From the NCBI GenBank assembly GCA_044221725.1, contig JBGAON010000001.1, positions 608,001-672,000 of the forward strand: a DNA stretch of 64,000 nucleotides. Direction: 5' to 3'. The DNA comes from Elusimicrobiota bacterium (GTDB lineage Bacteria > Elusimicrobiota > Elusimicrobia > F11). The position numbers and the translations under genes are program-made. The notes under the pieces were generated by a model. That model saw nothing but the letters and a program-made list of their open reading frames with translations. It was not told the origin of the DNA and searched no databases. Positions within the stretch are counted from its first letter, which is position 1. Every line of letters starts with the position of its first letter. Of the stretch, positions 30,142-49,600 are shown one piece after another.

Positions 30142-30214
30142 GGGTCGCTAGCTCAACTGGCAGAGCAGGTCCCTCTTAAGGACAAGGTTGGGAGTTCGAT
30201 TCTCCCGCGGCCCA
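30142..30214 (+). tRNA. tRNA-Lys(CTT)
   Basis: Cloverleaf, loop CTCTTAA, T arm GGGAG-TTCGATT-CTCCC; no encoded CCA. Confidence 0.92.
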
Positions 30215-30234
30215 AGCTTCATTTTTACATGAAA

Positions 30235-30268
30235 AACCAGGTGGCACCCAATACCGCGCCACCTGGTT
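30235..30268. other. Hairpin downstream of tRNA-Lys (possible terminator)
   Basis: AACCAGGTGGC / GCCACCTGGTT 11-bp stem; poor U tract. Confidence 0.5.
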
Positions 30269-30524
30269 AGGTTTGACTATCGATTCGTTGCCGTAAAGTC
30301 GAAGTCCTCTATTTCTTTGTTCTTCGAGGAACTCCGTTTTTTGTTCGATTTTTTGTTGCCACCGCTCATTCGTTTCTTCGAACGGTGGGACGATTGATTC
30401 TTTCGCATAGATCCTCCTTCGATTTTTTTTGACGCTCCTTTTTGTTACGTGATCGTATATGGATAGTTCAGAGCCTGAGAATAGTTGTAACCGAGTGTTT
30501 CGCTCATCCATCTAACCGGTATGG

Positions 30525-31049: not shown

Positions 31050-31055
31050 GACCCT

Positions 31056-31808
31056 ATGCCTGCCCATTTTTTTCTGATCGAAGACCTCGGGTTGTTTATT
31101 TCGAATCTCGAGTTGCGCGGTTATACGCGCGTGCGGTCGGATTCGTTGATCGAATATCATAAGACGATCTCGGGTGTATTGACGAAGTACTACGCGTATT
31201 CGTCGGTTGCCAGTCCGGACGCGCCCATCCAAGTTCGCGTGACGTACAAATTATTGGGCGATGGCAAGGCGCTTCAAAAGCTGGCCAAGAAGCTCAAGGA
31301 ATTAAACTACCGGTACCGCAAGACGTTGCCGGGCTGGAAAACAAAACGTGAACCATCCAAAAGGCGCCGAGATTTCCATTGGCACAATCTTGAATCCTTT
31401 TTGAATCATCACAGCGAACTGATCGCGTGTTTTAAGTACGAAGGCGACAATCGCCTCACCGAGGGAAATTATTCGTTTAATTTGCAGGTGGCGAGCACGC
31501 CCAAAGAGCAAGCGATTTGTCTCGACTTTATTCGCGCTATCGCCGAGGCGCACGCGCCGTACGGAATTGTTCGCCGACGCCGAGAGGCGGATCGCCCCAT
31601 ACAACAACGGAATGGCTGGATTCGCCGTTACGCGCAGTTGCACAAAAAGCGCGGCTGGGGCCCGCTTGAAATCGCGCGCGAGATTCAAAAGGAACTGCGC
31701 AACGGGACCTGGAACGAGCGCACGCGGTTTCAATTCAATATCGCGAACAACACGATCTGCAAAATTGCCGGACTAAAAATTCCTCGACAGCACTCCCACT
31801 TCAACTGA
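31056..31808 (+). CDS. Hypothetical basic protein, possible C-terminal HTH
   Basis: 250-aa ORF with AGGA upstream; GWGPLEIAREIQ helix-turn-helix-like tail. Confidence 0.6.
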   Translation: MPAHFFLIEDLGLFISNLELRGYTRVRSDSLIEYHKTISGVLTKYYAYSSVASPDAPIQVRVTYKLLGDGKALQKLAKKLKELNYRYRKTLPGWKTKREPSKRRRDFHWHNLESFLNHHSELIACFKYEGDNRLTEGNYSFNLQVASTPKEQAICLDFIRAIAEAHAPYGIVRRRREADRPIQQRNGWIRRYAQLHKKRGWGPLEIAREIQKELRNGTWNERTRFQFNIANNTICKIAGLKIPRQHSHFN

Positions 31809-31868: not shown

Positions 31869-33803
31869 ATGAAAAACCATCGAATGCTCTTCTCCCTGAT
31901 TCTCATAAGTGCCATCGGTTCGGTTCGAGCCGAAGATCTGCTCGTGGATAACTTCAATTATCCCGACGGCCTTATAACCAACGAATATGCGTTTTGGAAT
32001 CCGGAGGATCCAAACTCAGTGAAAAATCCCATTTGGGAAATGGACAGCGGATCGTTCTTCGCAAGTGGTGGTGCCGGTTGGAGCGGCGTCCCGAACGATC
32101 GCGCGCCAAACGCACGATCAACGAACGGCAACAATTCAGCGGTTTTCCGGTTGAACACCAAGAGATCCGACTTCGGCGATGTCGCTGTTTCTTTTTCCTT
32201 GCTAAATCAGGGGTTGACCCCTTCGCCGTCGACGCCGCCCGTCGACTGGGACGGTCTTCACATCTGGCTCCATTATCAATCCGAGTACTACTTGTATTAC
32301 GCGAGCATCAACCGTCGCGACAACACGGTCGTGATCAAGAAAAAGGTGCCGGGGGGGCCATCGAACGGCGGCACGTACTACGAGCTGAGTGACTACGTTC
32401 CCCATACGGTTCCGTACAACACGTGGCAACAGATAAAAGCCACGGTTCAAAACAACCTCGACGGGAGCGTCACAATTAAGCTTTTCGAGAACGACGTTCT
32501 GTTGGTCAGCGCCACGGACAACGGCACGATCGCCGGCCCCCCGATTCGGGGCCTGGGGAAAGTGGGGTTGCGTGGTGACAATGCGAACCTGAAATTTAAG
32601 AACTTCGTCGTGTCCACGCTGTCGGGTTCGACCCCCGCGACAATTCCGAACGCGCCGACGGGCTTAAGCGCGAGTTCCGGCGATCGCCGAGCCACCGTTC
32701 AATGGAGCGCGGTCGGAGGAGCGACCTCTTACAATATGTATTGGAGCACGAGTCGCGGTGTAAACAAAAGCAACGGCACTCGAATTTCCGGTGTGACGTC
32801 TCCACGAACGTTGAGCAACCTTACAAACGGCACCACGTGCTACGCTGTGGTGACGGCCGTCAATTCCATGGGAGAAAGCGCGGAATCGGTACAGGTCCAA
32901 TTTACGCCGGCGCCCGTACCGACGGGCGTATTGCCGGCGCCGCGCGGCGTTTCGGCGTCTTCGGCAGAATCCAAGATCACAATCTCTTGGAATCCGGTGC
33001 CTGGGGCGACGTCGTACAACCTTTACCGAAATCGGGTGACCGGTGTTTCAAAAGCGAACGGTTACAAAATCGCGAATGTTACCGCGCCTTATGTAAACAA
33101 AGGTCTCGTGAATGGGCAGGCGTATTACTTGGTGGTAACCGCGGTGAATCAGGCCGGGGAAAGTTTGGAATCCGCGGAAGTAGCGGCGACCCCGGGCTCG
33201 ACCAGCGCGCCCGTCCCTCCGACGAACATTCGCACAATTCCGGGCGACGGCCAAATTGTTATCAAGTGGGACCCGGTTCCGGGAGCCACCTCTTACAATC
33301 TCTACCGATCGCGCGCATCGAACGTCAACAAACAGACCGGATATCAAATCGAAAATGTCACGAATCCGTCGCTAAACACCGGATTCGCGAACGGTAAACC
33401 GATTTACATGGTCGTTACGGCCGTGAACGAGATGGGCGAAAGCGACGAATCCGTGATGGTTTCCGCGATTCCGTACGCCGGCGGTCCGCGTGGACTCGGA
33501 ATAAACGGTCCCGGGTCTCTCGGCGCGTCGACGAGTTTGGAGACCCGTCGCATTTTCCCGAACCCTTGGCGCAACGATAAGAATGCCGGGAATCCGGTGA
33601 CGTTCGATCAATTAACACCCGGCACATCCATCAGAATCTTTACGCTCGCGGGCCAGTGGGTGAACACGCTCGAAGCCGAAAGCGCCACCACGTGGGATCT
33701 TCGCAACCACGAGGGCGAAAAAGTGGCGTCGGGCGTCTACGTGTGTCTGTTCACAAACAACAATGGAGAAAAGAAACGCAGTCTTTTAACGGTGATCCAA
33801 TGA
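31869..33803 (+). CDS. Secreted protein: beta-sandwich domain, three FN3 repeats, T9SS-type/FlgD-Ig C-terminal domain
   Basis: Signal peptide; three W..V.GATSYN.Y...VVTAVN..GES.ES repeats; FPNPW...IFTLAG...WDLRN..G.KVASGVY tail. Confidence 0.85.
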   Translation: MKNHRMLFSLILISAIGSVRAEDLLVDNFNYPDGLITNEYAFWNPEDPNSVKNPIWEMDSGSFFASGGAGWSGVPNDRAPNARSTNGNNSAVFRLNTKRSDFGDVAVSFSLLNQGLTPSPSTPPVDWDGLHIWLHYQSEYYLYYASINRRDNTVVIKKKVPGGPSNGGTYYELSDYVPHTVPYNTWQQIKATVQNNLDGSVTIKLFENDVLLVSATDNGTIAGPPIRGLGKVGLRGDNANLKFKNFVVSTLSGSTPATIPNAPTGLSASSGDRRATVQWSAVGGATSYNMYWSTSRGVNKSNGTRISGVTSPRTLSNLTNGTTCYAVVTAVNSMGESAESVQVQFTPAPVPTGVLPAPRGVSASSAESKITISWNPVPGATSYNLYRNRVTGVSKANGYKIANVTAPYVNKGLVNGQAYYLVVTAVNQAGESLESAEVAATPGSTSAPVPPTNIRTIPGDGQIVIKWDPVPGATSYNLYRSRASNVNKQTGYQIENVTNPSLNTGFANGKPIYMVVTAVNEMGESDESVMVSAIPYAGGPRGLGINGPGSLGASTSLETRRIFPNPWRNDKNAGNPVTFDQLTPGTSIRIFTLAGQWVNTLEAESATTWDLRNHEGEKVASGVYVCLFTNNNGEKKRSLLTVIQ

Positions 33804-34720
33804 AAAAAATACTTTCGATATTCATTACTTTTTCGTTCTTCGGAATCGCAGGTGTCGGGTTTGCCGATCCTGGAACCGAAGGGGCAAGCTTTTTAAACAT
33901 CCCGGTTGGCGCGGAACCCGCCGCTCTTGGCAGCGCGTACAGCAGCCTCGCGGAAAACGCATACGCGCCGGTGTGGAACGCGGCCGGTTTGGGGCGCGTC
34001 GAACAAATGCAGCTCGCAGCGCAACACCTGGCGTATTTGGAATCGATTCATTACGAGTTCGCCAGTTTTGTCATGCCGCTAAGAAACAAAAGTGCGTTCG
34101 GCGTGAGCATTCAGTATCTCGGAACCGGCGATATCGCCGCGACGGACGCCAACGGAAATTCGATCGGTGCAACCACGAACCAATACGGCGCTTACAGCGT
34201 CGCCTATGGCCGTTCGTTGTCGGACCGGCTGTCGCTCGGATTGACGGGAAAATTTATTTCCGGGCATCTCGATAATGTCGGCGCGAGCGCTTACGCGCTT
34301 GATTTCGGCAGCATGTACCGCGTTTCGGAGCGATTAAATTTGGCCGCGACAATTCAAAACGTTGGGTCGCGACTGAAGTTCATAAGTCAAAGCGATCCAC
34401 TTCCGCTGGCGGCGCATGTGGGTGGCACGTACGCGTTTTTAAAGAATGTGTCGGCCTCGGCGGAAGCGGTTATTCCGCAGACGAAGCTTGTGTCGTTTCG
34501 TGGCGGCCTCGAATGGAAACCGGCAAATGAGTTGGCGCTGCGCATTGGATATCGCACGGACACGATCAAACAGTTGGGGCCGATCGCCGGACTAACCATG
34601 GGCGTCGGATTCAATCTGCTCGGACAAGAATTGTCGTATGCCTGGGTTCCGCTCGACGAGCTCGGCAATACGCACTATTTCTCTCTATTAATGCGGTTTA
34701 ACGACCACAAAAACCGTTAA
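33800..34720 (+). CDS. PorV/PorQ-family outer-membrane beta-barrel
   Basis: Signal peptide, FLNIPVGAEPAALGSAY...WNAAGL, alternating beta strands; ATGA coupling to the upstream gene. Confidence 0.82.
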   Translation: MKKILSIFITFSFFGIAGVGFADPGTEGASFLNIPVGAEPAALGSAYSSLAENAYAPVWNAAGLGRVEQMQLAAQHLAYLESIHYEFASFVMPLRNKSAFGVSIQYLGTGDIAATDANGNSIGATTNQYGAYSVAYGRSLSDRLSLGLTGKFISGHLDNVGASAYALDFGSMYRVSERLNLAATIQNVGSRLKFISQSDPLPLAAHVGGTYAFLKNVSASAEAVIPQTKLVSFRGGLEWKPANELALRIGYRTDTIKQLGPIAGLTMGVGFNLLGQELSYAWVPLDELGNTHYFSLLMRFNDHKNR

Positions 34721-34818: not shown

Positions 34819-36145
34819 ATGACAGCAGCAACCGTAGCATCAGACAACATCGTTCTTCAAAATAAGATTGAAACCCGCCAAGCACGCATCGGCGTTTTGG
34901 GACTTGGATACGTGGGTTTGCCTTTGGCGGTAGAGTTTGCAAAAACCGGTTTCTCCGTTTCCGGTTTCGAAGTTGATCCGGCCAGGATTCGTACGTTGCT
35001 CGCCGGAGAATCCTATATCGCCGATGTTCCGAGCGAGGATGTTCGCTCGCTCGTCGAGAAAAAGCGATTTGTCGCGACGACCAATTTCACGCAATTGAAT
35101 GCGATGGACATCATCATCATTTGCGTGCCGACGCCGCTCAGCAAAGCGAAAGAACCGGACATTTCTTACATCGCGAAAGCCACCGAAGCCGTCGCGAACG
35201 GACTGCACCGCCAACAACTGATCGTTTTGGAAAGCACCACGTATCCGGGCACAACGCGCGACTTCATGCTGCCGCTGCTCGAGAAGAAAGGTTTTAAGGT
35301 GGGCCGCGACTTCTTCCTCGCATTTTCTCCGGAAAGAATCGACCCGGGAAATCCGCAATTTCATCTCACGAACACGCCAAAAGTGGTGGGCGGCATTACG
35401 CCGGCGTGTGGGGAATTGACCGCTCTTCTGTACCGCCAAGTCGTTGACACCGTTGTTCCCGTCTCATCGTCGGAAGCGGCGGAGATGGTGAAACTTCTTG
35501 AAAACACGTTCCGCGCGGTGAACATCGGACTCGTGAACGAGCTCGCGCTCATTTGTGACAAACTGAAACTAAACGTTTGGGAAGTTATTTCTGCGGCGTC
35601 GACGAAACCCTACGGTTTCATGCCGTTTTATCCGGGCCCCGGGCTCGGCGGGCACTGCATCCCGATCGATCCGCTTTATTTGTCGTGGAAGATGAAGGTG
35701 CTAAATTTCTCAGCGCGCTTTATTGAGCTTGCAGACGAAGTGAATTCGCACATGCCCGACTTCGTTATTCAGAAAACCGCGCTCGCATTGAATCAGCGAA
35801 AAAAAATCGGTGAACGGTTCAAAGATTCTCGTGCTCGGTGTTGCCTACAAAGCGAACGTGAGCGATGTTCGGGAATCTCCGTCGCTCGATGTGATTCATT
35901 TGCTGCAGAATCTCGGAGCCGACGTTTCGTTCCATGACCCGTATGCCAAGTCCATTGAAGTGGGTGGCAAGCAGCTCACCGGTCGCGCGCTTTCGCCTTC
36001 GTTGCTTGAATCGATGGATGCGGTGATTGTTGCGACAGCGCACAGCGCTTTCGATGCGAAAGAAATCGTGCGGCACTCCTCTCTGGTGATCGATACGCGT
36101 AACGTGACGAAAGGAATGCGGAACGCGAATATCGTCCGGTTATAA
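34819..36145 (+). pseudogene. Nucleotide-sugar 6-dehydrogenase (WbpA/WecC-type), frameshifted at an A8 run
   Basis: GLGYVGLP, LESTTYPG, KLLENTFR, PGPGLGGHCIPIDP. The C-domain (LGVAYKANVSDVRESP...DTRN) continues in another frame after A8 at 35799-35806. Confidence 0.85.
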
Positions 36146-36148
36146 GCC

Positions 36149-37729
36149 ATGTCGCCGGTTATTACCTCAACACCTCGTCGCCGTCGCCACTTTCGGTTTC
36201 GCTACGTTGACGACGCAACGGTAAAAGTTGGCCATTCGCGCATGCACACGCGTCTGGTGGACGCGAGCGAATCCGGTGCGTGCGTCGAAGTGGACAAAAA
36301 CAGGCGTCTCCTTCCCGGGGCGGAAGTGACACTGGAATTGCCTGTTCCTCCCGGAATGAACGGCACGTCGGCCGATCACTTCTGCAAAATTGCTGGCACG
36401 GTTGTGCGCGTCGGGCATTCAACCGATGCGTCGCAGCGTTACGTGATCAAATTTAAACGATTGGTTCACGATCAGCTTGTGCTAAATCGCACACGCACAC
36501 ACAAGTTGGTTGTTGGCTTTGCGGCCACCGCGTTGGCAGCGGTCATTTGTTTGTTAAAGGTGAACAACCTTATTTACTTCTGGTACGACCCGTGGTTGCA
36601 GTTCTACAGCGTGGGGGCGGCTGCGTTTGTGGTTTCGCGCGTGGTTCTATCTTTGTCCTATCAGGAGCCGCTCGATCACGGATATTTCCCGAAAATTTCG
36701 ATTGTGATCGCCGCGAAAAACGAACAAGCGCATATTGCCGAGACCATCGAGCATTGTTTCCGTTCGCACTATCCGCCCGATCTTTTTGAAGTGTTGGCCG
36801 TCGACGACGGTTCCACCGATCTCACGTGGGACATTATGCAATCGCTTGTGAAGAAGTATCCGCGGTTGTCGGTCATTCATTTCGAAAAGAACAAAGGAAA
36901 AAGACACGCCATGGCGATCGGTGCTGAGAAGGCCACCGGCGATGTTCTCGTCTACGTGGATTCTGATAGCTACATTGACCCGGAGAGCTTGTACCGAATC
37001 GTGCAGCCATTTGCGCGGCGCAACGTCGGTGCGGTGTCGGGGCATGTGCTGGCCGCCATCGAGTCGGATAACTTTATTTCAAAAATGGAAGCGGTCCGTT
37101 ATTACATTTCCCATCGCGTGATGAAGGCGGCCGAAAGTATTTTCGGTGTGGTAACCTGTTGCCCCGGTGCGTTTTCGGCGTACCGAAGATCCGTTGTGCT
37201 CGACATTATTCCTGAGTGGTTGAACCAGAGGTTTTGGGGCACGCCCGCAACGTTCGGAGACGACCGCAGTCTTACGAATTATATTTTGCGCGAACACGAA
37301 GTGATTTACCACGCCGGGGCCTTGTGCTTGACCTACGTGCCTCGCACGTTGATGCAGTTTCTTCGTCAGCAATTGCGATGGAAGAAATCGTGGTCACGGG
37401 AAACAACGGTGGCCGTTCGAATTATGTGGAAAAAGCACCCGGTCGCCGCGCTGTTCTATTACCTTGGGATTGTGCTCACCTTGGTCTCTCCGCTGGTGGC
37501 GATGCGGGCTTTGTTTTATCTGCCGTTTGTTAGTGCGACGAGTTTCATTCCGTACATCAGCGGCGTTTTCCTCGTGTGTTTGTTCCTGTGTCTGATCTAC
37601 CTTTATTTCACGCGCTCACGATATTGGTATTTCGGCCTGCTGTTTGCGGCGCTCTATTTGGTCGTGCTGTCGTTCCAGAACTACTACGCGATTCTCACGA
37701 TGAACAAGAACCACTGGGGGACCCGATGA
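36149..37729 (+). CDS. PilZ-fused hyaluronan-synthase-like GT2
   Basis: PilZ RxxxR (RRHFR) and DxSxxG (DASESG); DDGS, GKRHAM, VDSD, GDDRSLTN, QQLRWKKSW. Confidence 0.85.
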   Translation: MSPVITSTPRRRRHFRFRYVDDATVKVGHSRMHTRLVDASESGACVEVDKNRRLLPGAEVTLELPVPPGMNGTSADHFCKIAGTVVRVGHSTDASQRYVIKFKRLVHDQLVLNRTRTHKLVVGFAATALAAVICLLKVNNLIYFWYDPWLQFYSVGAAAFVVSRVVLSLSYQEPLDHGYFPKISIVIAAKNEQAHIAETIEHCFRSHYPPDLFEVLAVDDGSTDLTWDIMQSLVKKYPRLSVIHFEKNKGKRHAMAIGAEKATGDVLVYVDSDSYIDPESLYRIVQPFARRNVGAVSGHVLAAIESDNFISKMEAVRYYISHRVMKAAESIFGVVTCCPGAFSAYRRSVVLDIIPEWLNQRFWGTPATFGDDRSLTNYILREHEVIYHAGALCLTYVPRTLMQFLRQQLRWKKSWSRETTVAVRIMWKKHPVAALFYYLGIVLTLVSPLVAMRALFYLPFVSATSFIPYISGVFLVCLFLCLIYLYFTRSRYWYFGLLFAALYLVVLSFQNYYAILTMNKNHWGTR

Positions 37730-38997
37730 TGACACAAACGTTCCCTGTTCGTCGTCCCTACCCATGGAAGTGGCTTGTGCTGTTTGCTGCCATCGGAGCG
37801 CTTTTCGTTTACGGAATGTTTTTTTCTCCGCAGATTCCTCAGTTTGATTCGCGCGAACGATCGGCGTTGTTTGGCGGCCGGCAGACGTATTACTTGATTC
37901 ATATGCCGGCGGTGCCGAACGGCCAAGATTTTATGGTATCGAAGGCCGAAGCATGGCTCGTCGGCATGGCCACAAAAGGTTTTCATCCTTTGTTGCTGTC
38001 GGAAGTGCATCGTCGGTTGCAAGCAAACGAAGGGCTGCCGGGGAAAACGGTGGTGCTCATGTTTGATCCGGGAACCACCTACACATTTGAAGTCATGGCG
38101 CCGCTATTGGCGAAATACAAATACCCGGCTGTTTGGGTCACCAACGTGAATGCCATGAGCCGCCATGACCGGCAGTACGTGAGTTATCACGTGATGCACG
38201 CGATGGAAAAATCAGGAATTTGGGACGTTGCGCATTACGAGGGATCGCGGCTGGTGATCCATTCACCGAAGGCGAAAGACATCGTTATTGGTCAATCGAA
38301 AGGCACGTGGCGTGAGAATTCGGGTCGGCGCGCGCTTAACCGTGGCGTTCCGGAAGACCGTCTAAACCGGTTGCATGTGAATTGGAACTGGACCGAGCAG
38401 CAGATGGTGGACCGGCTACAAGCCGAAGAGCCGTTACAGATCAACGGTTTCTTAACACTAAAAAATATTTCCGGTCACAATTGGGGAATTATTATGCCGG
38501 TTACCTCGGCCGCGAACCCCGGGTTTAGTTTGAAGGCCCCGATGGAAGGTCGCACCGCGAATCTTAGCTGGCTGGGGACGCGTGGAATAAAAGACGCTCA
38601 GTTTCGGCTGAACGTGCAATCGTTGAGCGGCGAAATGTGGCTCATGATGCGTTCCGACGAAGAAGTCGGCGAGAGCGTCGGCGTTTGTTTCGGCAATGGC
38701 GTGCTCACGGTCGGTCAAGCGCGCGATCATCAGTTCCGGCCGATCGCGACCTATCCAATCGAATCGTTGCGGCAGCCCACCAGCTTTTTGGCGCGTATTT
38801 CTTTAAACGGGCCAAACCTTGTTGTCACTGTGAACGGCGTTCAAGCCGCTCGCCTAAATTCATTGACGCCACCGCAGTCCGACGAGGGGATTGTCCGTAT
38901 GCTGGTTTACGACAAAATCATGGGCGGCGCGCAAGTGGAGTCCGTGAAACTGGAGATGGAACGACAGGGAAATATTATTAGTGGAGAACGTCCATGA
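37726..38997 (+). CDS. Membrane-anchored degenerate CE4 deacetylase-like domain plus beta-sandwich domain
   Basis: N-terminal TM; LPGKTVVLMFDPG where TFDDG is expected; beta-rich C-terminus. Confidence 0.65.
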   Translation: MMTQTFPVRRPYPWKWLVLFAAIGALFVYGMFFSPQIPQFDSRERSALFGGRQTYYLIHMPAVPNGQDFMVSKAEAWLVGMATKGFHPLLLSEVHRRLQANEGLPGKTVVLMFDPGTTYTFEVMAPLLAKYKYPAVWVTNVNAMSRHDRQYVSYHVMHAMEKSGIWDVAHYEGSRLVIHSPKAKDIVIGQSKGTWRENSGRRALNRGVPEDRLNRLHVNWNWTEQQMVDRLQAEEPLQINGFLTLKNISGHNWGIIMPVTSAANPGFSLKAPMEGRTANLSWLGTRGIKDAQFRLNVQSLSGEMWLMMRSDEEVGESVGVCFGNGVLTVGQARDHQFRPIATYPIESLRQPTSFLARISLNGPNLVVTVNGVQAARLNSLTPPQSDEGIVRMLVYDKIMGGAQVESVKLEMERQGNIISGERP

Positions 38998-41900
38998 AAC
39001 GCAACAATCGTAGTTGTTTGTTTTCTGCCGCAGCGCTTTTTATCTTAATGGCCTCGCAGGTTCGCGCCGAAGATTTGGGCCTTTTGAGGTCCCAAGCGCT
39101 CGCGCGTTATCACGAGGGTCGGTACGAGGAGGCCGCGCAACTTTATCGGAAAATAATTGCTCTTCGACCCGGAGACGTTGAGATGTTGCGCAATCTCATG
39201 TGGGTTTTATGGAAAGACGAACGTTTCAATGACGCGAAGCGTATAGCAACGCAGCTCTTGGCAATTGATAAGAACGATGCCGAAGCCACAACCATTGTTC
39301 GCAAAGCACCGACATTGGCATTGCGCGCCGAAGCGAACGCGAATTTTCACGCGGGACGCTTTACGCAAGCGAACAAGCTTTACAAAGATTTGGCCGCGCT
39401 TGAGCCCGACAATCCGTCGGTGTTGCGGGATTATATGTGGTCGTTGTGGGAAACCGGAAATTACGATGAGGCTCGTGATACGGCGAAGAAAATTCTCACG
39501 TTGAATAAAAGCGACCAGGAAGCCAAAGACATGCTCACGAAAGCACCGCTTGCCTCGCTTCGGGCGCGTGCGATTCAAAGTTACAAGGCAAAGCGCTACC
39601 AAGATGCAATCGATGCGTATCAAAAACTTCTCGCGCACTCACCAAACAGCGCCAGCATTCTCAAGGATATCTACTGGTGCCAGTGGCAGCTCGGTCACTA
39701 CAAAGATGTAACGGACATCGCTACAAATCTCACAGAGCTTTATCCGAACGATCCGGAAGTGTGGAACCTGCTTGGGCGGGCGCACGTGGCGAACGACAAA
39801 TTGGAAGAGGGGCTTCGGGCCTACAACCGAAGCTTGGAGCTGAAACCGAGCCAGCCCGACACGCAGCGTGTGGTGGGTCGGCTGCACGTTGATTTGCGCG
39901 AATTCGATAATGCGATTGGCGTGTTGAGCGAACTTGAAGCCAAAGACCCCAGCATCCGCACAATCTATCCGCAGCTCGCAAAAGCGCAGTTTTTTAAAGG
40001 TTTTTACTCGGAATCCGCGAAGAACTGGGCCAAAGCGGCGCAGCTTTATCCGGAAAACGATAACTACAAACTGCACGAGGCGCGCGCTCTCTATTACAAC
40101 GGGCAAATCCCCGAGGCGATGACCAAGCTCGAAAAGCTGGCCAACGGCAACGGTCCCATGAAATGGATGGCCATTGATTTCATTGTGGACGATGCGTTGT
40201 CTCATCGCGACATCAAGACGGCGATCCGCATGCTTGAGACAAATCTCAAAGGCAATGTGGAGCCCGCGCAAGAATCACGGCTTTTAAAACTTGGGACGAT
40301 CTATCTTGATAATCACCAATCGCGCAAAGCGTTGCAGACGTTGAATCGGTTTTTGAAATTGAATCCCGGAAACATTCCGGGCTTGTTGATCAAAGCGGAT
40401 ACACTATACGACTTGGGTCACAATGGTGCGGCGGCCCGCATCTATAAGCAGGTTCAGAAGTTGAATCCTTACTCGATCAATGCGCAGGAAGGGTTGGCCA
40501 ACGCCGAGTTTGCGGCCGGAAATTTCCATAACGCGTTAACCGCGTTTGATAAAGCGTACGCGCTCGATCCGACCGATCCTTACTTGATGATTCTCGAAGC
40601 TCACTACATGAACGAAAGTGGTTTGTATAAGAAGGGCCGGAACGTTCTTTTGCGGTGGTTAAACGAAAATAAAAATCATCAAGTGGTGCCGGTGCTGTTG
40701 TATCACGGCCTCACGCCGTTCAATCGCGATCCCATGTTGGCTTACCCGGTTCACGTCCGAGTCTCCGTCTTTGAAGACCATATTCGCGCGCTGAAATCCG
40801 CTGGTTACACGCCGATCACATCCGAACAATTGGCAGCGTGGTACAAGAAAAAAGGCGATTTGCCGAAGAAACCCATCTTGCTCACGTTCGATGACGGCCG
40901 CTTGGACAGTTTCAAATATGCGGATCCGATCCTTCAAAAGTATGGATTCAAGGCCACGATGTTCGTGCCGATCGCGAACATTGAAGGACACATGCCGCCG
41001 TCCTATGTGTCGTGGAGTCAGATTCTTCAGTACCAGAAGTCGGGGCGATGGGAATTTCAATCGCACGCGGATATGGGACACGGCCGCATCGATATCGATG
41101 CGAAGGGTCGCCAGGGACTGTTTCTTGTGAACCGCCAGTGGTTGGAGAAAGAGAATCGTTTGGAGACCGTCAAAGAATGGGAAGAACGCGTGCTGAACGA
41201 TCACATCAATGCGAAGAAAAAAATTGCACAAATGCTTGGAAAAACACCGGTGGCTTACGCGTATCCGGAAGGAACTTACGGGCAGATCGATATTGTGAAT
41301 TCGCCCGAGGCGGTGCCGGTCAATATTGCGGCGATGAAAAAAGAATATCAACTCGCGTTTCATCAAGACCGGTTTGGGCTGAACGTTCGTACGCGCGATC
41401 CAATGTATCTTACGCGGCTTGAGCCAAATCCGGCATGGACGGGCGAGGAGCTGGTGCGTTATCTGCAAGACAAAAGTCCTTACGTGGTGATTCCACGGCA
41501 ACTGCTTTGGCTTGCCTTATGGAATGAAAAGCCGCGACAAGCGGATGGCTATTTGAAAGATTTGCGCAATGCCGGCGCCTCGCAAGTCGTATTGCTTGGG
41601 GAAGAAGGGCGTATTCGTTCGGCGTTGGGCGATGTTCCGGGGGCGCGCCAGTCCATTAACGCGGCGCGCGCGCACGGAGCGGACGCCGACAACGACAAGT
41701 TATTCGCTTCGATCGACGTGCAGGGCGGTCGGTTGTGGAGCCCCGCGTACACGTTTACGGAAGACAACCGACGCCGACGCAATTCAATCTTCGAGCAGAC
41801 ACTTCGCCCTTTCAAAGTATCGAAGTTCAATGTCGGCATCGACTATATGTACGGGTCTTACCGTGAAGTGGGTGTGTCCACGATCACGCAGAACGGCGCG

Positions 41901-42560
41901 GGCCTTAGTTTCTACACGAATCCCTCGTTGTTCCATACGTTGAGTGGAAGAGCCATGTGGCACTGGTTCCCAAAAAGTTTCGGTGTGACGGATACGTACA
42001 CGGCGTCTTTGGCTCTCGACTCCCGTTGGTCGGACTCGTTTGAAACGGAAGTTACCGGCGGGCGCGCGTTGTACGACACCGCTTCGGCCATCCAACACAA
42101 CGTGACGGAAGACTACGGAAATCTCTATCTCGCGTTTAAACCAGAACTGTGGAGAATATCGTTGAAAGCGTCGGGCGGGAATCTTTCCGACGACAATCAA
42201 CGTTACGGAGGGCAGGCCGGAATTTCACGCGACATAGCGTTCGGTTTCCGTGGCGTTTACCGTTACACGTACGACAATATGAAAGAAATCAGCCCGCTTT
42301 ATTACAGCCCGCAACAATTGCATCAGCATCAATTGGGTTTGCAATTTAAGCCGGCGTTCCGTGTGATCGAACCATCGCTCACGTACATGCCGGGTATCGG
42401 TAAGGAGCGGAACACAAACCAAACATTCGTGCAAGACATCGAAGCGGCGGTGCTCTTCCACATCGGTCGTCGCACGACACTAATGCCGTTCTACGGTCTC
42501 ACCAAAACTCCAACCTACACGCGCGACACGTACAACGTGCAGTTAACCATCCACTTTTAA
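38994..42560 (+). CDS. TPR - polysaccharide deacetylase - beta-barrel fusion (PgaA/PgaB-like exporter)
   Basis: Signal peptide, many TPRs, PVLLYH, LTFDDG, SHADMGH, YAYPEG; C-terminal amphipathic strands ending in Phe. Confidence 0.8.
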   Translation: MKRNNRSCLFSAAALFILMASQVRAEDLGLLRSQALARYHEGRYEEAAQLYRKIIALRPGDVEMLRNLMWVLWKDERFNDAKRIATQLLAIDKNDAEATTIVRKAPTLALRAEANANFHAGRFTQANKLYKDLAALEPDNPSVLRDYMWSLWETGNYDEARDTAKKILTLNKSDQEAKDMLTKAPLASLRARAIQSYKAKRYQDAIDAYQKLLAHSPNSASILKDIYWCQWQLGHYKDVTDIATNLTELYPNDPEVWNLLGRAHVANDKLEEGLRAYNRSLELKPSQPDTQRVVGRLHVDLREFDNAIGVLSELEAKDPSIRTIYPQLAKAQFFKGFYSESAKNWAKAAQLYPENDNYKLHEARALYYNGQIPEAMTKLEKLANGNGPMKWMAIDFIVDDALSHRDIKTAIRMLETNLKGNVEPAQESRLLKLGTIYLDNHQSRKALQTLNRFLKLNPGNIPGLLIKADTLYDLGHNGAAARIYKQVQKLNPYSINAQEGLANAEFAAGNFHNALTAFDKAYALDPTDPYLMILEAHYMNESGLYKKGRNVLLRWLNENKNHQVVPVLLYHGLTPFNRDPMLAYPVHVRVSVFEDHIRALKSAGYTPITSEQLAAWYKKKGDLPKKPILLTFDDGRLDSFKYADPILQKYGFKATMFVPIANIEGHMPPSYVSWSQILQYQKSGRWEFQSHADMGHGRIDIDAKGRQGLFLVNRQWLEKENRLETVKEWEERVLNDHINAKKKIAQMLGKTPVAYAYPEGTYGQIDIVNSPEAVPVNIAAMKKEYQLAFHQDRFGLNVRTRDPMYLTRLEPNPAWTGEELVRYLQDKSPYVVIPRQLLWLALWNEKPRQADGYLKDLRNAGASQVVLLGEEGRIRSALGDVPGARQSINAARAHGADADNDKLFASIDVQGGRLWSPAYTFTEDNRRRRNSIFEQTLRPFKVSKFNVGIDYMYGSYREVGVSTITQNGAGLSFYTNPSLFHTLSGRAMWHWFPKSFGVTDTYTASLALDSRWSDSFETEVTGGRALYDTASAIQHNVTEDYGNLYLAFKPELWRISLKASGGNLSDDNQRYGGQAGISRDIAFGFRGVYRYTYDNMKEISPLYYSPQQLHQHQLGLQFKPAFRVIEPSLTYMPGIGKERNTNQTFVQDIEAAVLFHIGRRTTLMPFYGLTKTPTYTRDTYNVQLTIHF

Positions 42561-42577
42561 AAGCTGCGACTGCGGTG

Positions 42578-42618
42578 CCCCTCACCTCATCCCTCTCCTC
42601 GCCACCGCGAGGAGAGGG
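42578..42618. repeat. Palindromic element copy after the polysaccharide operon
   Basis: CCCCTCACC...CCCTCTCCTCGC / GCGAGGAGAGGG, enclosed by AAAGCTGCG / CGCAGCTTT. Confidence 0.75.
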
Positions 42619-42696
42619 AACGCAGCTTTGTTGCATACATTTCTCATACCCATGGCTAAAGAAATCTTACATGGGAGTCAGAAATGGAGAAATATC

Positions 42697-43095
42697 ATGA
42701 AAAATCAAACAGTTTCGCTGTTCCTTTTAACCGTGGTGTTTTCAAATTTCAGTTTTGCCGATGTTCCCTACCCCGGTCCAGACAACCCGCCGCCCACGGC
42801 TCCGACCCCTGGTAGTGGATATCGGTCTCCCGAATCCTATTATCCAAAGGAGAATCCGTTTGAAGGTATCGGTCAGCGCGCCGGGGTGGGGACCAGTCCG
42901 TGCGACAGCCTCTGGGAACAGATCCGTCGTATTCAATCCGACTTAATTTATTTGCACGCTCAGCGAAATCACCTTCTTGCAAATGGGAGCAACGAAGGCG
43001 ACGACTGCATTCAGGGCATTGATAGGCAAATTGCCTCCGATACAACTCGGTTGGATGCACTTGAGGCGCAATTCACTGCGCTTAATTGCCAATAG
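42697..43095 (+). CDS. Small secreted hypothetical protein
   Basis: GGAG SD, signal peptide, Pro-rich linker, coiled-coil tail with three Cys. Confidence 0.6.
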   Translation: MKNQTVSLFLLTVVFSNFSFADVPYPGPDNPPPTAPTPGSGYRSPESYYPKENPFEGIGQRAGVGTSPCDSLWEQIRRIQSDLIYLHAQRNHLLANGSNEGDDCIQGIDRQIASDTTRLDALEAQFTALNCQ

Positions 43096-43117
43096 AGACT
43101 GAGCTCCGGCTTCCGGC

Positions 43118-44944
43118 TTATTCCACCGTCACGCTTTTTGCGAGGTTGCGGGGTTGGTCGACGTCGCAGCCGCGTAGCACCGCGATGTGGTACGCGAGCA
43201 TTTGCAACGGAATAATTGTCAGTAGTGGCGACAGAAATTCGTGGGTGCGCGGTACCGCGATCACGTGATCCGCTTTGTCGCTAACTTCGGTGTCTATTTC
43301 GTTCGTGATAGCGATCACGCGCCCACCGCGCGCTTTTACTTCCTGAATATTCGAAATCATTTTTTCTTTAATCGATGAATCGGTGGCGATGGCGACCACC
43401 GGCAAGCCTTCTTCGATAAGCGCAATCGGCCCGTGTTTCATTTCGCCGGCCGGATATCCTTCCGCATGGATGTACGAAATTTCCTTTAATTTCAAGGCCC
43501 CTTCCAACGCCACGGGATAATTCAAGTGGCGTCCCAAGAAAAGAAAATCTTTCGCGCGATAATATTCGCGCGCCACGTCCTCAACGATGCCGCTTTTGTC
43601 GAGAAATACTTGAAGCATGTGCGGTAGATAGTCCAGTTCTTTGAGAATCAATCGTTGCTGCGACAACGGAATCGTGTTTCGGCATTCGGCGATGTAAAGT
43701 GACAACAGAAGAAGCGCCGTCAATTGCCCGGTGAACGCTTTCGTGGAAGCCACGCCGATTTCGGGACCACAGTGCGTGTACAGCGTGTTGTCCGCGTCGC
43801 GCGTAACCGTTGAGCCGAGCACGTTGCAAACGGACAACGTCGGAAAACCTTTTCGTTTGCAGTCGCGCAGCGCCGCCAGCGTGTCGGCCGTTTCGCCGGA
43901 TTGCGAAATCGCCGTGATGAGGGTTCCTGGCTCCTTGCTGGCTTTCATGTAGCGAAATTCGCTGGCGATTTCGACGTCGCACGGTATCTTTGCTAACTCT
44001 TCCATCCAAAATCGCGCGACGAGCCCCGCGTGATAAGACGTTCCGCATCCAACCAAGCAAATTTTTGGAATTTCTTCGGCAAGTTTACGAGGGAGTGCTT
44101 CTTCGAGTTTTACCGACGCTTTGTTGAGATCAATCCGACCGCGAAATGTGTTTTGAATCGTCTCGGCCTGCTCGTGGATTTCTTTGAGCATAAAATGCTT
44201 GCGGCCATTTTTCTGGGCCATCTTCGCGTCCCACTTGATTTCTTTGACGGGGCGATTCACGAGGGTTCCTTTTCGGTCGTAAATTTGGAGGCGTTGCTGC
44301 CGAATTTCGGCCATATCGCCATCCTCGAGGAAAATAACGTTGCGCGTGTGATTGAGCAGCGCCGGCACGTCGGAAGCGATCATCATCTCTTTGTTGCCGA
44401 CGCCGATGACGAGAGGCGAATCTTTTCGTACCGCAATGAAGCGATCTCTTTCATCGGCCGAAACCACGCCCAACGCATACGAACCTTTTACGTTCTCAAG
44501 CGCCCTTTTGACAGCTTCAAGAATGTCGCCGTTGTAGAACTCTTCGATGATGTGCGCGAGAACCTCGGTGTCGGTTTGTGACTTGAAGATATGTCCTTTG
44601 CCCGTGAGATCGTGTTTCAAAACGTCATAGTTCTCGATGATGCCGTTATGAACAACGAAAATTTTGCTCTTGCAGCAGGAGTGGGGGTGAGCGTTTTCTT
44701 TGGTCGGGCGTCCATGGGTGGCCCAGCGCGTGTGACCAAGCCCCAACGACCCGTGCAGCGGGCGTTCTTTGATCAGGTTTTCGAGCGCGGCCAATTTTCC
44801 AATGCTTCTCACCAATTGGACTTCGCCACCATTCAAAATCGCCAAGCCGGCCGAATCGTATCCCCGGTATTCCAAACTTTTAAGCCCTTGAACGAGCACA
44901 TCCGACGCTTCTTTATCTCCAATATAACCCACAATTCCGCACAT
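43118..44944 (-). CDS. glmS: Glutamine--fructose-6-phosphate aminotransferase
   Basis: MCGIVG, EYRGYDSAG, HTRWATHG, SQSGETAD, PRNLAKSVTVE. Confidence 0.97.
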   Translation of the reverse strand: MCGIVGYIGDKEASDVLVQGLKSLEYRGYDSAGLAILNGGEVQLVRSIGKLAALENLIKERPLHGSLGLGHTRWATHGRPTKENAHPHSCCKSKIFVVHNGIIENYDVLKHDLTGKGHIFKSQTDTEVLAHIIEEFYNGDILEAVKRALENVKGSYALGVVSADERDRFIAVRKDSPLVIGVGNKEMMIASDVPALLNHTRNVIFLEDGDMAEIRQQRLQIYDRKGTLVNRPVKEIKWDAKMAQKNGRKHFMLKEIHEQAETIQNTFRGRIDLNKASVKLEEALPRKLAEEIPKICLVGCGTSYHAGLVARFWMEELAKIPCDVEIASEFRYMKASKEPGTLITAISQSGETADTLAALRDCKRKGFPTLSVCNVLGSTVTRDADNTLYTHCGPEIGVASTKAFTGQLTALLLLSLYIAECRNTIPLSQQRLILKELDYLPHMLQVFLDKSGIVEDVAREYYRAKDFLFLGRHLNYPVALEGALKLKEISYIHAEGYPAGEMKHGPIALIEEGLPVVAIATDSSIKEKMISNIQEVKARGGRVIAITNEIDTEVSDKADHVIAVPRTHEFLSPLLTIIPLQMLAYHIAVLRGCDVDQPRNLAKSVTVE

Positions 44945-45002: not shown

Positions 45003-46670
45003 TTAGGCTAAGAGAGAGGACTTGTTTTCGGACGCTTCGATCGAGTCAAAAAATACGGTGTCCGGCGTTGTGTTGTCAGGTTTGTAAACGGGCAGGCGAA
45101 AACGAAATGTGGATCCTTTGCCGAGCTCAGAGTCCACCCAAATGCTGCCGTTATGACCTTCGACAATCTTTTTAACAATGGCGAGACCCATTCCGGTGCC
45201 CGGGTATTTGTGCCACGTGTGAAGGCGTTGGAAAATTCCAAAAATTCTCTCGAAGTGGCTTGGATCAATTCCGATGCCGTTGTCGCGGACCGAAAAACTC
45301 CATTCGTCTCCGTCCCGTTCGGCGTCGATGCGAATCTGCGGGGCGCATTCACTTCGAAACTTGATCGCGTTGCTGATTAAATTTTGAAACAACTGGCTCA
45401 TCGAAACGCGGCTCGCAAAAACTGTCGGAAGAGAGCCCACGGACACTTCGGCGTTCGCGGTCTTGATCTGCAATTCAAGATTGAGCAACGCGTTTTTTAC
45501 GGTTCGATTAAGATCGACCGGTTCAAACGCTTTTTCCTTCGTCACGATGCGCGAGTATCGAAGCAGATTGTCAATCAGTTCGCTCATGCGCGAGGCGGCT
45601 CCTTGAATGCGCGTGAGATATTCCCGTCCCTTATCTGAAATTCCGGTGCCTTCGGATTTGAGCAGGTCGCCAAAATTAAGAATTTTTCGCAGTGGTTCTT
45701 GAAGATCATGCGAGGCCGAAAACGCAAATTGCTCCAGTTCCTTGTTGGAGCGGAGCAATTCTTTCGCTTGTCGTTCCAGTTCTTCGGTCGCTTGTTTACG
45801 ACCATGAATATCGGTGCACGTCACAATCCAGCCGGCGGGCCGAAATTCCGAGTCTCTTTGCAGCACGCCCCGGATCAAATGCCAGCGTTCCGGTTCATCG
45901 TCTCTTCCGTTGCGAATGCGGCCTTCGCCCTCAAAATTTTCGTTTCGCTCTTGTGCTTTGTCCCATATCGACAAGATCAGTGCGAGATCGCTCGCGTTAA
46001 ACGCTTTTTGCCAGCCGTGCCCCATCGATTTATCGGATGCAAAGCCAGTGTATTCAAACCAAATGCGATTGAAGTAGTCGGCCGATCGGTTCACCCCGGT
46101 GCGCCAGACGATATGAGGAACGGAATTCGCCAAGTCTTGATATTGGCGCAGGTTCTTTAATTCCATTTCGGCCAACTGGCGGGATCGCTCGCGTTGTTCG
46201 GCCTCAACCAGCAATCGCGCCTGTCGTTTTATTTTTTTGTTTTTATCGTAGAGCTCGACGAGCACCGCTACTTTGGACTTTAGAATCAGCGGGTCGAACG
46301 GTTTGAAGATGTAATCAACGGCGCCGCAGTCGTAGCCACGATAAACATGCGCTTCTTCTTTGTTGATCGCCGTAATGAAAATAATCGACGTGTTTTTCGC
46401 ACTTTCGATTTCGTTTATGCAACGGGCCGTCTCAAAACCGTCCATGCCGGGCATCTGCACGTCGAGCAAAATCACGGCGAAGTCGCGTTCGGTGACCATC
46501 TTGATGGCCTCAATGCCCGAGGCCGCTTGATAGCACGTGTATCCGAGGCCATCGAGAACCGCCTCGAGCGTCAGTCGCCCTTCGGGGCGGTCGTCGACGA
46601 TGAGAATATCGATCTTGTCGTCTTCGTCCGCTTTCGCGGACATTATTGCTTCGACACTTTTGTTAACCAT
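45003..46670 (-). CDS. REC-PAS-histidine kinase
   Basis: ILIVDD...LLDVQMP receiver, PAS/PAC, SHDLQEPLR H-box, NLISNAIKF, GTGMGL. Confidence 0.92.
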   Translation of the reverse strand: MVNKSVEAIMSAKADEDDKIDILIVDDRPEGRLTLEAVLDGLGYTCYQAASGIEAIKMVTERDFAVILLDVQMPGMDGFETARCINEIESAKNTSIIFITAINKEEAHVYRGYDCGAVDYIFKPFDPLILKSKVAVLVELYDKNKKIKRQARLLVEAEQRERSRQLAEMELKNLRQYQDLANSVPHIVWRTGVNRSADYFNRIWFEYTGFASDKSMGHGWQKAFNASDLALILSIWDKAQERNENFEGEGRIRNGRDDEPERWHLIRGVLQRDSEFRPAGWIVTCTDIHGRKQATEELERQAKELLRSNKELEQFAFSASHDLQEPLRKILNFGDLLKSEGTGISDKGREYLTRIQGAASRMSELIDNLLRYSRIVTKEKAFEPVDLNRTVKNALLNLELQIKTANAEVSVGSLPTVFASRVSMSQLFQNLISNAIKFRSECAPQIRIDAERDGDEWSFSVRDNGIGIDPSHFERIFGIFQRLHTWHKYPGTGMGLAIVKKIVEGHNGSIWVDSELGKGSTFRFRLPVYKPDNTTPDTVFFDSIEASENKSSLLA

Positions 46671-49600
46671 ATATGGATTAGCGACAACAGTTTCTCAGGA
46701 TCAACCGGCTTCGTGATGTAGTCCGATAGCCCTGCCTGCAAACATCGTTCCTGATCTTCTTTCATTGCTTTGGCCGTGAGCGCCACGACCGGCGTTGTTT
46801 TGAACAGCGGATTTTTTCGAATTATCCGTGTGGCTTCCAAGCCGTCCATGCCGGGCATCATGATGTCCATGAGCACGACGTTAACGGCCGGATTCTCCTC
46901 GAGCCGCTTAATTCCGTCTTGCGCATTTTCGGCGGCCAATACCTTGATCCCGCGGTCTTCCAATGCCGTCTTCACGGCGAAGATATTTCGGTTGTCATCA
47001 TCGATCAACAGCACTTGGCAGCCGTCGAATTTGAACCCTTCTGGCAATGGCGGCAACGTGGGAATCGCTGCCGGTGTGCTCGGCGCCGCGGATTCCACGA
47101 TTCCCGAGTACTGTTCCGGTAAATAGAGCGTAAATACGCTGCCCTCCCCCGGACTGCTTTCCACTTCGAGAATTCCACCGAGTAGGCGCGCGATTTCGCG
47201 ACTGATGGTGAGGCCGAGGCCCGTGCCGCCGAAGCGACGGCTGGTTGTTCCGTCGGCCTGTTGGAACGCCTCGAAGATGATCTTTTGCTTTTCTTTAGGA
47301 ATTCCGATACCCGTGTCCGCCACCGAGAACGCGATCACGTTGCGAGCTTGATTCAGGGCTTCGACCATGAATTTTTGATTCTTCGGAGCGCGATGAATTT
47401 TGAGTGACACCGTGCCTTTCTCTGTAAACTTAAACGCATTGGACAAAAGGTTTTTAAGAATCTGCTGCAGACGGTTTGGGTCGGTGTGGATTTCTTCGGG
47501 ACGGCTTGTCGCATTCGCGAACGAAAACCGCAGCCCTTTGTGATCCGCGACGGGCCGGAAGCTCTGCTCGAGATATTCTTGCACCTCGGAGATTGGCACG
47601 TTGCGCGGTTCGATCGGCATTTTGCCCGCTTCGACCTTCGACAGATCCAAAATCTCGTTGATCAATGACAGCAAGTCGCAGCCAGAGGAGTGAATCGTCT
47701 GTGCGTACTTCACTTGTTCCGGCGTCAGATTATGGTTTTTGTTTTCGGTCAGCATTTTCGACAGGATCAGCAAGATGTTGAGCGGCGTTCGCAGTTCGTG
47801 TGACATGTTCGCTAAGAACTCAGACTTATATTTCGAGATCAGCGAGAGCTGCTCGGCTTTTTCTTCGAGAGACAGGCTGGCGAGCTCGATTTCTTGGTTT
47901 TTAAGTTCAAGCAGTTTTGCTTTCTCTTCGAGTTCCTTGGCCTGCATTTCGAGTTCGGCGTTTGACTTCTGAAGTTGTTTCAGAAGCTCTTCTGTTCGCA
48001 TGTTCGACTCAATGATGTTCATGATGACGCCGATGTTGTCCATCAATTGATCAAGGAAGATGAGGTCGTTTGCCGAGAAACGTCGGAAGGACGCCAGTTC
48101 GATCACCGCTTTTAGTTCGCCTTCGAAAAGCACCGGCAGTATGACGATATGGTTTGGTGCGGCTCCGCCAAGACTCGAGCTGATTTTCAAATAGCCTTCG
48201 GGTGGCGCATTTAGAATGATGCGCTTCTTTTCGAATCCGCATTGTCCCACGAGTCCTTCGTGCATCCGCACCTCGAGAGGCACATTGTCATCCTGCTTCA
48301 CACCATACGACGCTATCATCCGAAGAATTGTTTGCGGTGCCGCCATGTCATAAATGAAAAACGTACCGTAATGCGCTTCGATAAGCGGCGTAAGTTCGGA
48401 CATGATGAGTTGCGCGACAGCCTTGATACTTCGTTGGCCCTGCATCATTTCGGTGAATTTCGCGATGTTCGTTTTCAACCAGTCCTGTTCGCGATTTTTT
48501 TGCGTTGTGTCTTTAAGGTTCGCGATCATCTGATTGATGTTGTCCTTGAGCGCGGCCACTTCTCCCTGCGCTTTCACGGCAATGGAGCGCGTTAAGTCTC
48601 CTTTTGTCACGGCGGTGGAAACTTCAGCGATTGCGCGCACTTGCGTGGTCAAATTTCCGGCCAGCTGATTTACGTTTTCGGTTAAGTCCTTCCAAATACC
48701 GGCAGCGCCCGGCACTTTCGCTTGGCCGCCCAGCTTTCCTTCAATACCCACTTCGCGCGCCACGCTCGTCACCTGATCGGCGAACGTGCGCAGAGTGTCG
48801 GTCATGCTGTTGATCGTTTCGGCGAGCGCGGCCACCTCGCCCTGCGCTTCGAGCACAAATTTTTGGCTCAAGTCGCCGTTCGCCACCGCCGTTACCGTTT
48901 CCACGATGCCGCGCACTTGCTTCGTAAGATTCGCGGCCATAACGTTCACGTTTTCGGTTAAGTCTTTCCAAATACCGGCAGCGCCCGGCACTTTCGCTTG
49001 ACCGCCCAGCTTTCCTTCAATGCCCACTTCGCGCGCCACGCTTGTCACCTGATCGGCGAACGTGCGCAGAGTGTCGGTCATGCTGTTGATCGTTTCGGCG
49101 AGCGCGGCCACCTCGCCCTGCGCTTCGAGCACAAATTTTTGGCTCAAGTCACCGTTGGCGACGGCGGTCACGACTTTCACAATACCGCGCACTTGCTTCG
49201 TGAGATTCGACGCCATGATATTCACGTTATCGGTCAAATCTTTCCAAGTTCCCGATACACCGATAACGGCCGCTTGGCCGCCCAATTTTCCTTCGGTGCC
49301 CACTTCTTTCGCAACGCGCGTCACTTCGGCGGCAAACGATCGCAGCTGGTCCACCATGGTGTTGATCGTTTCTTTGAGTTCCAAAATTTCGCCGCGAGCA
49401 TCGACCGTGATTTTTTGCGACAAGTCGCCGCGCGCAACGGCGGTCGTCACTTTCGCGATGTTGCGCACTTGGTCCGTTAGGTTTTTCGCGAGACCGTTCA
49501 CGTTATCGGTTAAGTCTTTCCAAGTTCCCGACACCCCTCGCACGTCCGCTTGACCACCCAAAATTCCGTCCGTGCCCACCTCTTTGGCCATACGCGTTAC

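Follow-up and report, generated by a model that had tools for sequence, protein, structure and literature searches.

A PilZ-fused synthase of the hyaluronan synthase/NodC group marks an apparently undescribed polysaccharide secretion cassette in Elusimicrobiota

The described machines closest to the locus reported here are the class I hyaluronan synthases (HAS), the synthase-dependent systems for poly-N-acetylglucosamine (PNAG; PgaABCD/IcaADBC), alginate (Alg8, Alg44, AlgD, AlgK, AlgE) and cellulose (BcsA, B, C, Z), and the pair NodC with NodB. Cyclic di-GMP (c-di-GMP), a second messenger, binds PgaC and PgaD together, and PilZ is C-terminal in BcsA and located on the separate subunit Alg44 in alginate synthesis (PMC8461298). 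The locus lies in a 64,000-nucleotide stretch (the window, C3:608001-672000) of a five-contig, 2.8 Mb Elusimicrobiota genome, and the core of its cassette is three genes:

36149..37729, +: synthase with a PilZ domain (aa 11-105), two membrane helices, a GT2 domain, interface/membrane helices and a C-terminal WGTR (Pfam, alignments)
37726..38997, +: single-pass membrane partner with a dead PgaB-like CE4 domain and a CBM66/lectin-like β-sandwich (predicted structure)
38994..42560, +: export protein with signal peptide, TPR, intact CE4 (aa ~565-810) and PgaA-like β-barrel (aa ~890-1188) (Pfam; barrel from Atlas features)

The system is real and conserved and, as it appears, undescribed; it represents a new form of synthase-dependent polysaccharide secretion, with a synthase that makes up a clade of its own. 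A first, sequence-only reading of the DNA had proposed an undescribed system, and this is supported by the literature searched, in which no description of the cassette was found and to which subscription journals contributed little. No passage in the main text of PMC7112194 deals with hyaluronan, NodC or Paenibacillus, and none in that of the epsSMASH preprint with hyaluronan or chitin; the supplement of the latter, with 14 synthase-dependent systems, could bear on novelty.

With class I HAS (Chlorella-virus HAS, 8snc/7sp7; Xenopus HAS1, 8smm; a HasA candidate of Bacillus cereus G9241) the synthase shares the fold, the DxD, GDDR, QxxRW and WGT motifs, the channel arginine and a short bacterial-type C-terminus. 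It differs by forming a separate sister clade at about 30% identity, by its N-terminal PilZ and by a K-x-x-E-S motif, and its cassette has a dehydrogenase of the N-acetylhexosamine (HexNAc) type instead of Ugd and comprises in addition a partner protein, a deacetylase and a pore for the outer membrane. The PNAG systems have likewise a PgaB-type CE4, TPR with a PgaA-like barrel and, in enterobacteria, c-di-GMP control, but here the synthase is not PgaC, the deacetylase sits between TPR and barrel in one chain, a GH18 replaces the PgaB hydrolase domain and a dead-CE4 partner is added. No recurrent small PgaD-like neighbor appears among open reading frames (ORFs) of at least 90 aa, a survey made without a PgaD profile search. 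A PilZ-gated GT2, a membrane-anchored partner, TPR plus barrel and a polymer-cleaving enzyme are features that the cassette has in common with the alginate and cellulose systems, the former having also an operon-linked nucleotide-sugar dehydrogenase; unlike in these, PilZ is N-terminal in the cassette synthase, which is of the HAS/NodC group (Alg8 is not in our trees). NodC with NodB offers the precedent of a GT2 beside a CE4, and NodC is the best NCBIfam model, but the score is 175 versus 550 bits, the channel site has R instead of E, polymer export machinery is present and the gene maps of the cassette loci show no nod genes. The tests run place the synthase outside the families of HAS, NodC and PgaC.

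The synthase is a 526-aa protein whose GDDRSLTN and QQLRWKKSW are the motifs that had first drawn attention to it, and the signature of processive inner-membrane GT2 enzymes (D, DxD, D, QxxRW) is complete. Its AlphaFold2 model (mean predicted local distance difference test score, pLDDT, 88.8) matches best Chlorella-virus HAS (Z 34.2, root-mean-square deviation 2.4 over 364 residues), then Xenopus HAS1 (Z 30.5) and a mannosyltransferase from an archaeon (30.4), against 22.3 for BcsA and 18.9 for chitin synthase. In a tree of 37 rows, all 20 that belong to the family group together (96/97) and join HAS and NodC (100/98) apart from PgaC, and a quick tree of 106 rows agrees. Reference sequences were limited to a single HasA candidate from Bacillus, a single HasA-like gene from Lactococcus, NodC, PgaC and uncharacterized HAS-like genes from a viral collection. 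With these few HAS references, the synthase falls outside the HAS clade. A single clade of the family with PgaC is rejected (approximately unbiased test, p-AU 0.014), the PgaC model TIGR03937 gives 126 bits against a cut-off of 422 and the best NCBIfam model, NodC TIGR04242, gives 175 bits against 550. Trees, clade test and fold match thus bear out the proposed placement with HAS and NodC and not with PgaC.

Pfam assigns PilZ to residues 11-105 (42.8 bits, cut-off 22.5). Among 53 aligned homologues, R12, R13 and R16 of the RxxxR motif are invariant, and conservation of S40 and G43 in DxSxxG reaches at least 90%; both motifs, which together with the Pfam match support the N-terminal PilZ of the first reading, are kept in 79 of 88 close homologues having a long N-terminus. 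The domain is all-β in the AlphaFold2 model, with pLDDT mostly 80-92. We are confident that c-di-GMP would gate the synthase through this domain, as the conserved motifs suggest. Fourteen GGDEF matches occur in the genome; at 1125-3508 (+) of the window lie two neighboring genes for GGDEF diguanylate cyclases, of which the first also has a GAF domain. In one related locus (L035:7574-9195) PilZ and GT2 are two adjacent ORFs, a real split or a sequence error.

The residues lining the putative channel may inform on the product. Xenopus HAS1 has R287 and R296 near GlcA-2 (the glucuronic acid, GlcA, in the channel), and its R296K variant is tolerated with shorter chains (PMC11750622). In an alignment-based mapping whose offset of 13 residues was verified on Y288, F292 and C307, R287 corresponds to R317 of the cassette synthase (R in 92/94 rows) and R296 to K326 (K in 94/94), and the R317 site is E in 4/4 NodC and 2/2 PgaC. 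Conserved positions in membrane-side segments comprise fourteen basic versus four acidic residues. K177 and R341 of viral HAS hold the donor carboxylate (PMC12987647); their equivalents are conserved in the family and do not discriminate because NodC shares both. The conserved R317 adds a further argument that the product contains a uronic acid. According to a review, the channel of streptococcal HAS is likely at a dimer interface (PMC10939387). The cassette synthase has similarly few membrane helices and would therefore likely need a dimer or the helix of its partner.

The partner and the export protein correspond to the degenerate CE4 protein and the TPR-CE4-barrel fusion noticed initially, and both descriptions hold. 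In the partner FDPG replaces TFDDG, and the catalytic FDD is lost in 25/25 aligned partners. Its model (pLDDT 89.6) has one N-terminal membrane helix and matches the folds of PgaB (Z 16.1) and CBM66 (Z 14.5); the protein is predicted to be a co-polymerase or a periplasmic guide. The export protein has the CE4 motifs TFDDG, SHADMGH and YPEG, is closest to PgaB (PDB match, E 1e-18) and belongs to a set in which the catalytic D, D, H and H are kept in 33/40 aligned sequences. Its TPR and CE4 are found by Pfam and its barrel by Atlas features: the C-terminal 300 residues have a language-model feature score of 0.97 to PgaA-barrel clusters, a lead that comes with no alignment, and pairwise BLAST of the protein against E. 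coli PgaA gives weak TPR matches only. We are highly confident that a polymer would be exported through this fused protein.

Upstream of the synthase lies a dehydrogenase gene that bears on the chemistry of the product:

34819..36145, +: nucleotide-sugar 6-dehydrogenase of WbpA/TviB/WecC (GGHC) type, in two frames (Pfam N, central and C domains over two ORFs)
35799..35806, +: run of 8 A with a frameshift in the dehydrogenase, one base above the frame of an intact orthologue (locus L044)

It has the sequence GGHCIPIDP and scores 199-238 bits with the WecC/TviB models versus 41 with Ugd, in support of the HexNAc type that the motif had suggested. The gene was correctly placed in the operon; the first reading overlooked the extra A at 35799-35806 that breaks the frame. 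Intact orthologues of 438-449 aa with 86-88% identity exist in L044 and L001, and the frameshift is recent because the part beyond it has kept 61% identity with L044. Slippage could serve as a switch here, or the gene may be decaying at strain level. An assembly error is unsupported: gap-free contigs of two runs span the run of A, the two being of one sample that is possibly the source of the window's DNA. In another study one contig, of depth 2, is shorter by one base at 35799, a weak hint. An intact paralogue, 51% identical, is encoded at C3:858-859 kb.

The association of such dehydrogenases with the synthase is recurrent. Among 24 neighboring dehydrogenase ORFs the motif is visible in 21, and all 21 have GGHC. 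Eighteen cassette-linked enzymes sit on at least five separate branches of a tree, mixed with unlinked ones, so recruitment has been repeated. A GGHC dehydrogenase is also directly upstream of the GT2 in Paenibacillus, where it gives 429 bits with the TviB model, and in a family branch that lacks PilZ. By contrast, the control, the enzyme encoded next to a Lactococcus HasA-like gene (L126), is Ugd (499 bits). One dehydrogenase of the same clade (L171) belongs to a gene run that we take to resemble the wbpABDEI pathway. In passing, the plasmids L126/L127 (Lactococcus and Enterococcus faecium) carry a nucleotide-sugar dehydrogenase with a HasA-like GT2 annotated merely as glycosyltransferase.

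The genes are tightly packed, with 3 nt from the dehydrogenase stop to the GT2 start and ATGA overlaps between GT2 and partner and between partner and export gene, so that the gene set first listed is packed like an operon. Compared with L044, second codon positions are 0.77-0.94 identical and third positions 0.41-0.49, indicating purifying selection. A scan of the region for promoters and terminators stayed at chance level (6 vs 8.6 and 23 vs 21.6). Four RNA-library runs of one study give patchy depth of about 1-4, flanking genes being covered too; they are not evidence of expression because DNA carry-over is possible.

Searches of genomes and metagenomes, with ORFs labelled, gathered 102 loci with a family GT2, reduced to 92 after 10 near-duplicates were dropped. 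The closest to the window's cassette are Elusimicrobiota records. Where the downstream flank reaches at least 1.5 kb, 55 of 68 loci have the CE4-like partner after the GT2; where it reaches at least 6 kb, 39 of 43 have a barrel gene. Most loci without a partner are either of the PilZ-less branch, with the GT2 between dehydrogenase and GH18, or ones in which labelling missed a divergent gene. In that branch (L093, L095, L105, L112, L113, L115, L120, L121) the dehydrogenase is directly upstream and an FN3-GH18 downstream where the contig reaches, and no barrel was seen. Within the phylum the family GT2 occurs in 11/301 genomes, and in 8/21 of a set of relatives, both counts including the source genome. 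Named homologues of the synthase come from Omnitrophota and Nitrospirota. A plasmid of Paenibacillus cellulositrophicus has in a row CE4, a TviB-like dehydrogenase, PilZ-GT2 (GCU45_RS31010, 39% identity), CE4 partner and GH18, with no barrel gene. The search for the same operon elsewhere, suggested at the outset, thus found it in several phyla and, as a second full cassette, in the source genome itself (C3:850891-857166), accompanied by a convergent dehydrogenase-GH18 pair. That second region (C3:850891-859713, L013) has upstream a PorV and a DMFA2_C/DUF4082 protein with a tail of the type IX secretion system (T9SS), and rpsB follows. A viral-collection contig (L137:2547-8344) carries a dehydrogenase, a family GT2, a CE4 and two jelly-roll genes.

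Other genes accompany the core, in the window the following:

31869..33803, +: secreted protein in which an unnamed jelly-roll domain (roughly aa 21-256) is joined to FN3 repeats and a type-A-like T9SS tail (Pfam fn3; weak Por_Secre_tail)
33800..34720, +: PorV/PorQ-family outer-membrane protein (NCBIfam NF033709, 173 bits, cut-off 90)
42628..43095, +: 155-aa ORF (no Pfam or NCBIfam match)
43118..44944, -: second glmS (TIGR01135, 835 bits)

Of the 31 loci whose flanks reach at least 4 kb upstream and 6 kb downstream (long loci), 9 have a dehydrogenase, 9 a GH18, 6 a jelly-roll protein and 3 glmS: these are recurrent but optional accessories. The idea that the operon has its own amino-sugar supply holds in part, dehydrogenase and glmS being present, the latter convergent with the operon as first described, but as accessories and with the dehydrogenase copy frameshifted. 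glmS adjoins the GT2 in 5/92 loci. The housekeeping glmS at C3:294959 is 57% identical to the window copy and lies near a gene that we take, from its motif, to be glmM. A GH18 with DxDYE is found in 21/92 loci and is absent beside the window's cassette; that of the second cassette reads DGIDIDYE and is closest to YdhD/YaaH-type enzymes.

The jelly-roll domain (31929-32636 in the window, with a second genome copy at C3:25300-26487) adjoins the GT2 in 12/92 loci and is fused to CE4 in L098. With a limit of E 0.001, its family comprises 1250 clusters, and R, Y, R, K and Y are invariant in it; in 4 of 36 proteins scanned the domain is fused to CE4, and others have GH or CBM domains. It has no Pfam match above cut-off (weak DUF1080, E 0.008), no PDB match with a profile of 11 or 44 sequences and no significant profile match to the β-sandwich of the partner (probability 0.4%). 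From the invariant R, K and Y one might guess a lyase. The gene that carries it is likely an accessory part of the locus. The PorV gene, whose start (33800) overlaps its stop, stands between the jelly-roll gene and the dehydrogenase also in L001 and L044. The 155-aa ORF, with no homologue among the related loci fetched, is probably not part of the system.

We favor, with about an even chance of being right, the reading that this is a c-di-GMP-gated synthase-dependent system whose product would be a partly de-N-acetylated surface polymer containing a HexNAc uronate. HexNAc is expected in the product because the export protein has an intact PgaB-type CE4 and GH18 enzymes with DxDYE occur beside many cassettes. 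A more specific form, somewhat short of evenly balanced and put forward tentatively, is a new glycosaminoglycan-like polymer of N-acetylglucosamine (GlcNAc) and N-acetylglucosaminuronic acid made by a widespread sister lineage of HAS, switched by PilZ, rendered zwitterionic by the deacetylase built into the pore and served by jelly-roll proteins that bind or cleave it. In such a machine glmS and the GGHC-type dehydrogenase, identified by family, would raise UDP-GlcNAc and UDP-N-acetylglucosaminuronic acid, the intact paralogue at C3:858-859 kb presumably providing the dehydrogenase activity in this strain. Binding of c-di-GMP to RxxxR/DxSxxG could, by analogy with BcsA and HAS, free a WGTR gating loop at the extreme C-terminus. 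The single GT2 site would add sugars and thread the anionic chain past the conserved R317, K326, K137 and R164, the dead CE4-lectin partner would complete or steady the small membrane channel and pass the chain on, and the TPR-CE4-barrel protein, with its catalytic residues in place, would strip some acetyl groups and move the chain across the outer membrane. The GH18 N-acetylglucosaminidase beside many copies might then trim or release it.

Several observations weigh against this proposal. The dehydrogenase is below all equivalog cut-offs, and the model for CalS8, presumably a TDP-glucose dehydrogenase, scores also well, so the GGHC motif does not fix the substrate. Besides being frameshifted in the window, the enzyme is absent from 22 of the 31 long loci. 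GGHC-type dehydrogenases occur in 17/21 genomes versus 8/21 for the GT2, often in other glycan loci, and in genome G282 the paralogue's dehydrogenase precedes rpsB, at the same site, with the cassette absent. The CE4 and barrel of the export protein look like their counterparts in the PNAG system, whose polymer is neutral. In the wider family both PilZ motifs are found in only 37/64 loci, and the synthase family reads K-x-x-E-S (94/94) where HAS has E-R-x-x-Q-S. The trees rest on a small reference set, lacking streptococcal HasA, chitin synthase and Alg8. The HexNAc uronate and partial de-N-acetylation of the sequence-only reading are thus sustained by the dehydrogenase type, the intact deacetylase and the channel arginine, and weakened by the accessory status of the dehydrogenase and its frameshift here.

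The same machine under c-di-GMP control could instead make a neutral-to-cationic, chitin- or chitosan-like homopolymer of β-1,4 GlcNAc, the dehydrogenase serving other glycans. NodC as best NCBIfam model, GH18 and CE4 enzymes that both act on GlcNAc polymers, the optional nature of the dehydrogenase and the K-x-x-E-S motif, which resembles that of chitin synthases, are all consistent with it. We nevertheless consider it unlikely, given that R317 stands in 92/94 sequences where NodC has E, that the conserved membrane-side residues are strongly basic and that the position just upstream of the GT2 has repeatedly been taken by GGHC dehydrogenases, Paenibacillus and the PilZ-less branch included.

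True hyaluronan, or another alternating polymer containing GlcA that is later de-N-acetylated, is less probable still. It would fit the HAS fold with all HAS catalytic motifs, the retained equivalent of R287, a K at the R296 position that Xenopus HAS tolerates, a dehydrogenase motif shared with the non-HexNAc enzyme that we take CalS8 to be, and the Ugd-type genes found elsewhere in the source genome, the dehydrogenase then making UDP-GlcA. The synthase is however outside the HAS clade, and 0/21 motif-bearing neighboring dehydrogenases are of Ugd type, whereas the HasA-like plasmid gene has Ugd beside it.

A rearranged PNAG system making plain β-1,6 GlcNAc, with PilZ replacing PgaD, appears very unlikely: the PgaB/IcaB-type CE4 and the PgaA-like barrel favor it, but the PgaC model and the rejected PgaC clade speak against it, as do GDDR in place of TEDID and RWKKS in place of RWAQG. 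A product of short oligosaccharides, serving as NodC-like signal or envelope anchor, in place of a long polymer is highly improbable, since the few membrane helices and the shortening effect of R296K in Xenopus HAS that may suggest it stand against a TPR scaffold and barrel in 39/43 loci, which point to polymer export. The WGTR end was rejected as a sign of such a product, the Bacillus HasA candidate ending alike.

The surroundings of the locus in the window contain further genes. Just upstream, a lower-GC stretch (28931-31808) has tRNA-His and tRNA-Lys flanking a DUF4258 gene and an HTH gene, a putative toxin-antitoxin-like pair; the stretch is possibly an integration site. Directly upstream of glmS and on the same strand, 45003-51274 (-) encodes a hybrid histidine kinase rich in HAMP repeats, together with a second protein of receiver-PAS-kinase type. 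A second, unrelated polysaccharide locus at 5646-12080 (+) encodes a secreted protein without Pfam match, a 1337-aa DUF2334 protein and a GT2, an arrangement that we take to resemble Bacillus ydaLM; it was rejected as the same system, its GT2 being outside the family in the tree. Long contigs identical to the window's DNA were found in a bioreactor metagenome.

If the proposal is true, the cassette would add to the short list of synthase-dependent biofilm polymers. Two features of its architecture were not met in the literature searched, the N-terminal PilZ on a HAS-like enzyme and the deacetylase fused into the export pore. The product is directly testable because dehydrogenase, PilZ-synthase, CE4 partner and GH18 are all present in a soil bacterium that is in culture, Paenibacillus cellulositrophicus KACC 16577. 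The synthase family would be a natural sister group in which to ask by what path a single GT2 site gained the ability to alternate two sugars, and it might provide a new enzyme with which to make glycosaminoglycan analogues. The bioreactor setting of the matching contigs is one in which matrix chemistry would have practical importance.

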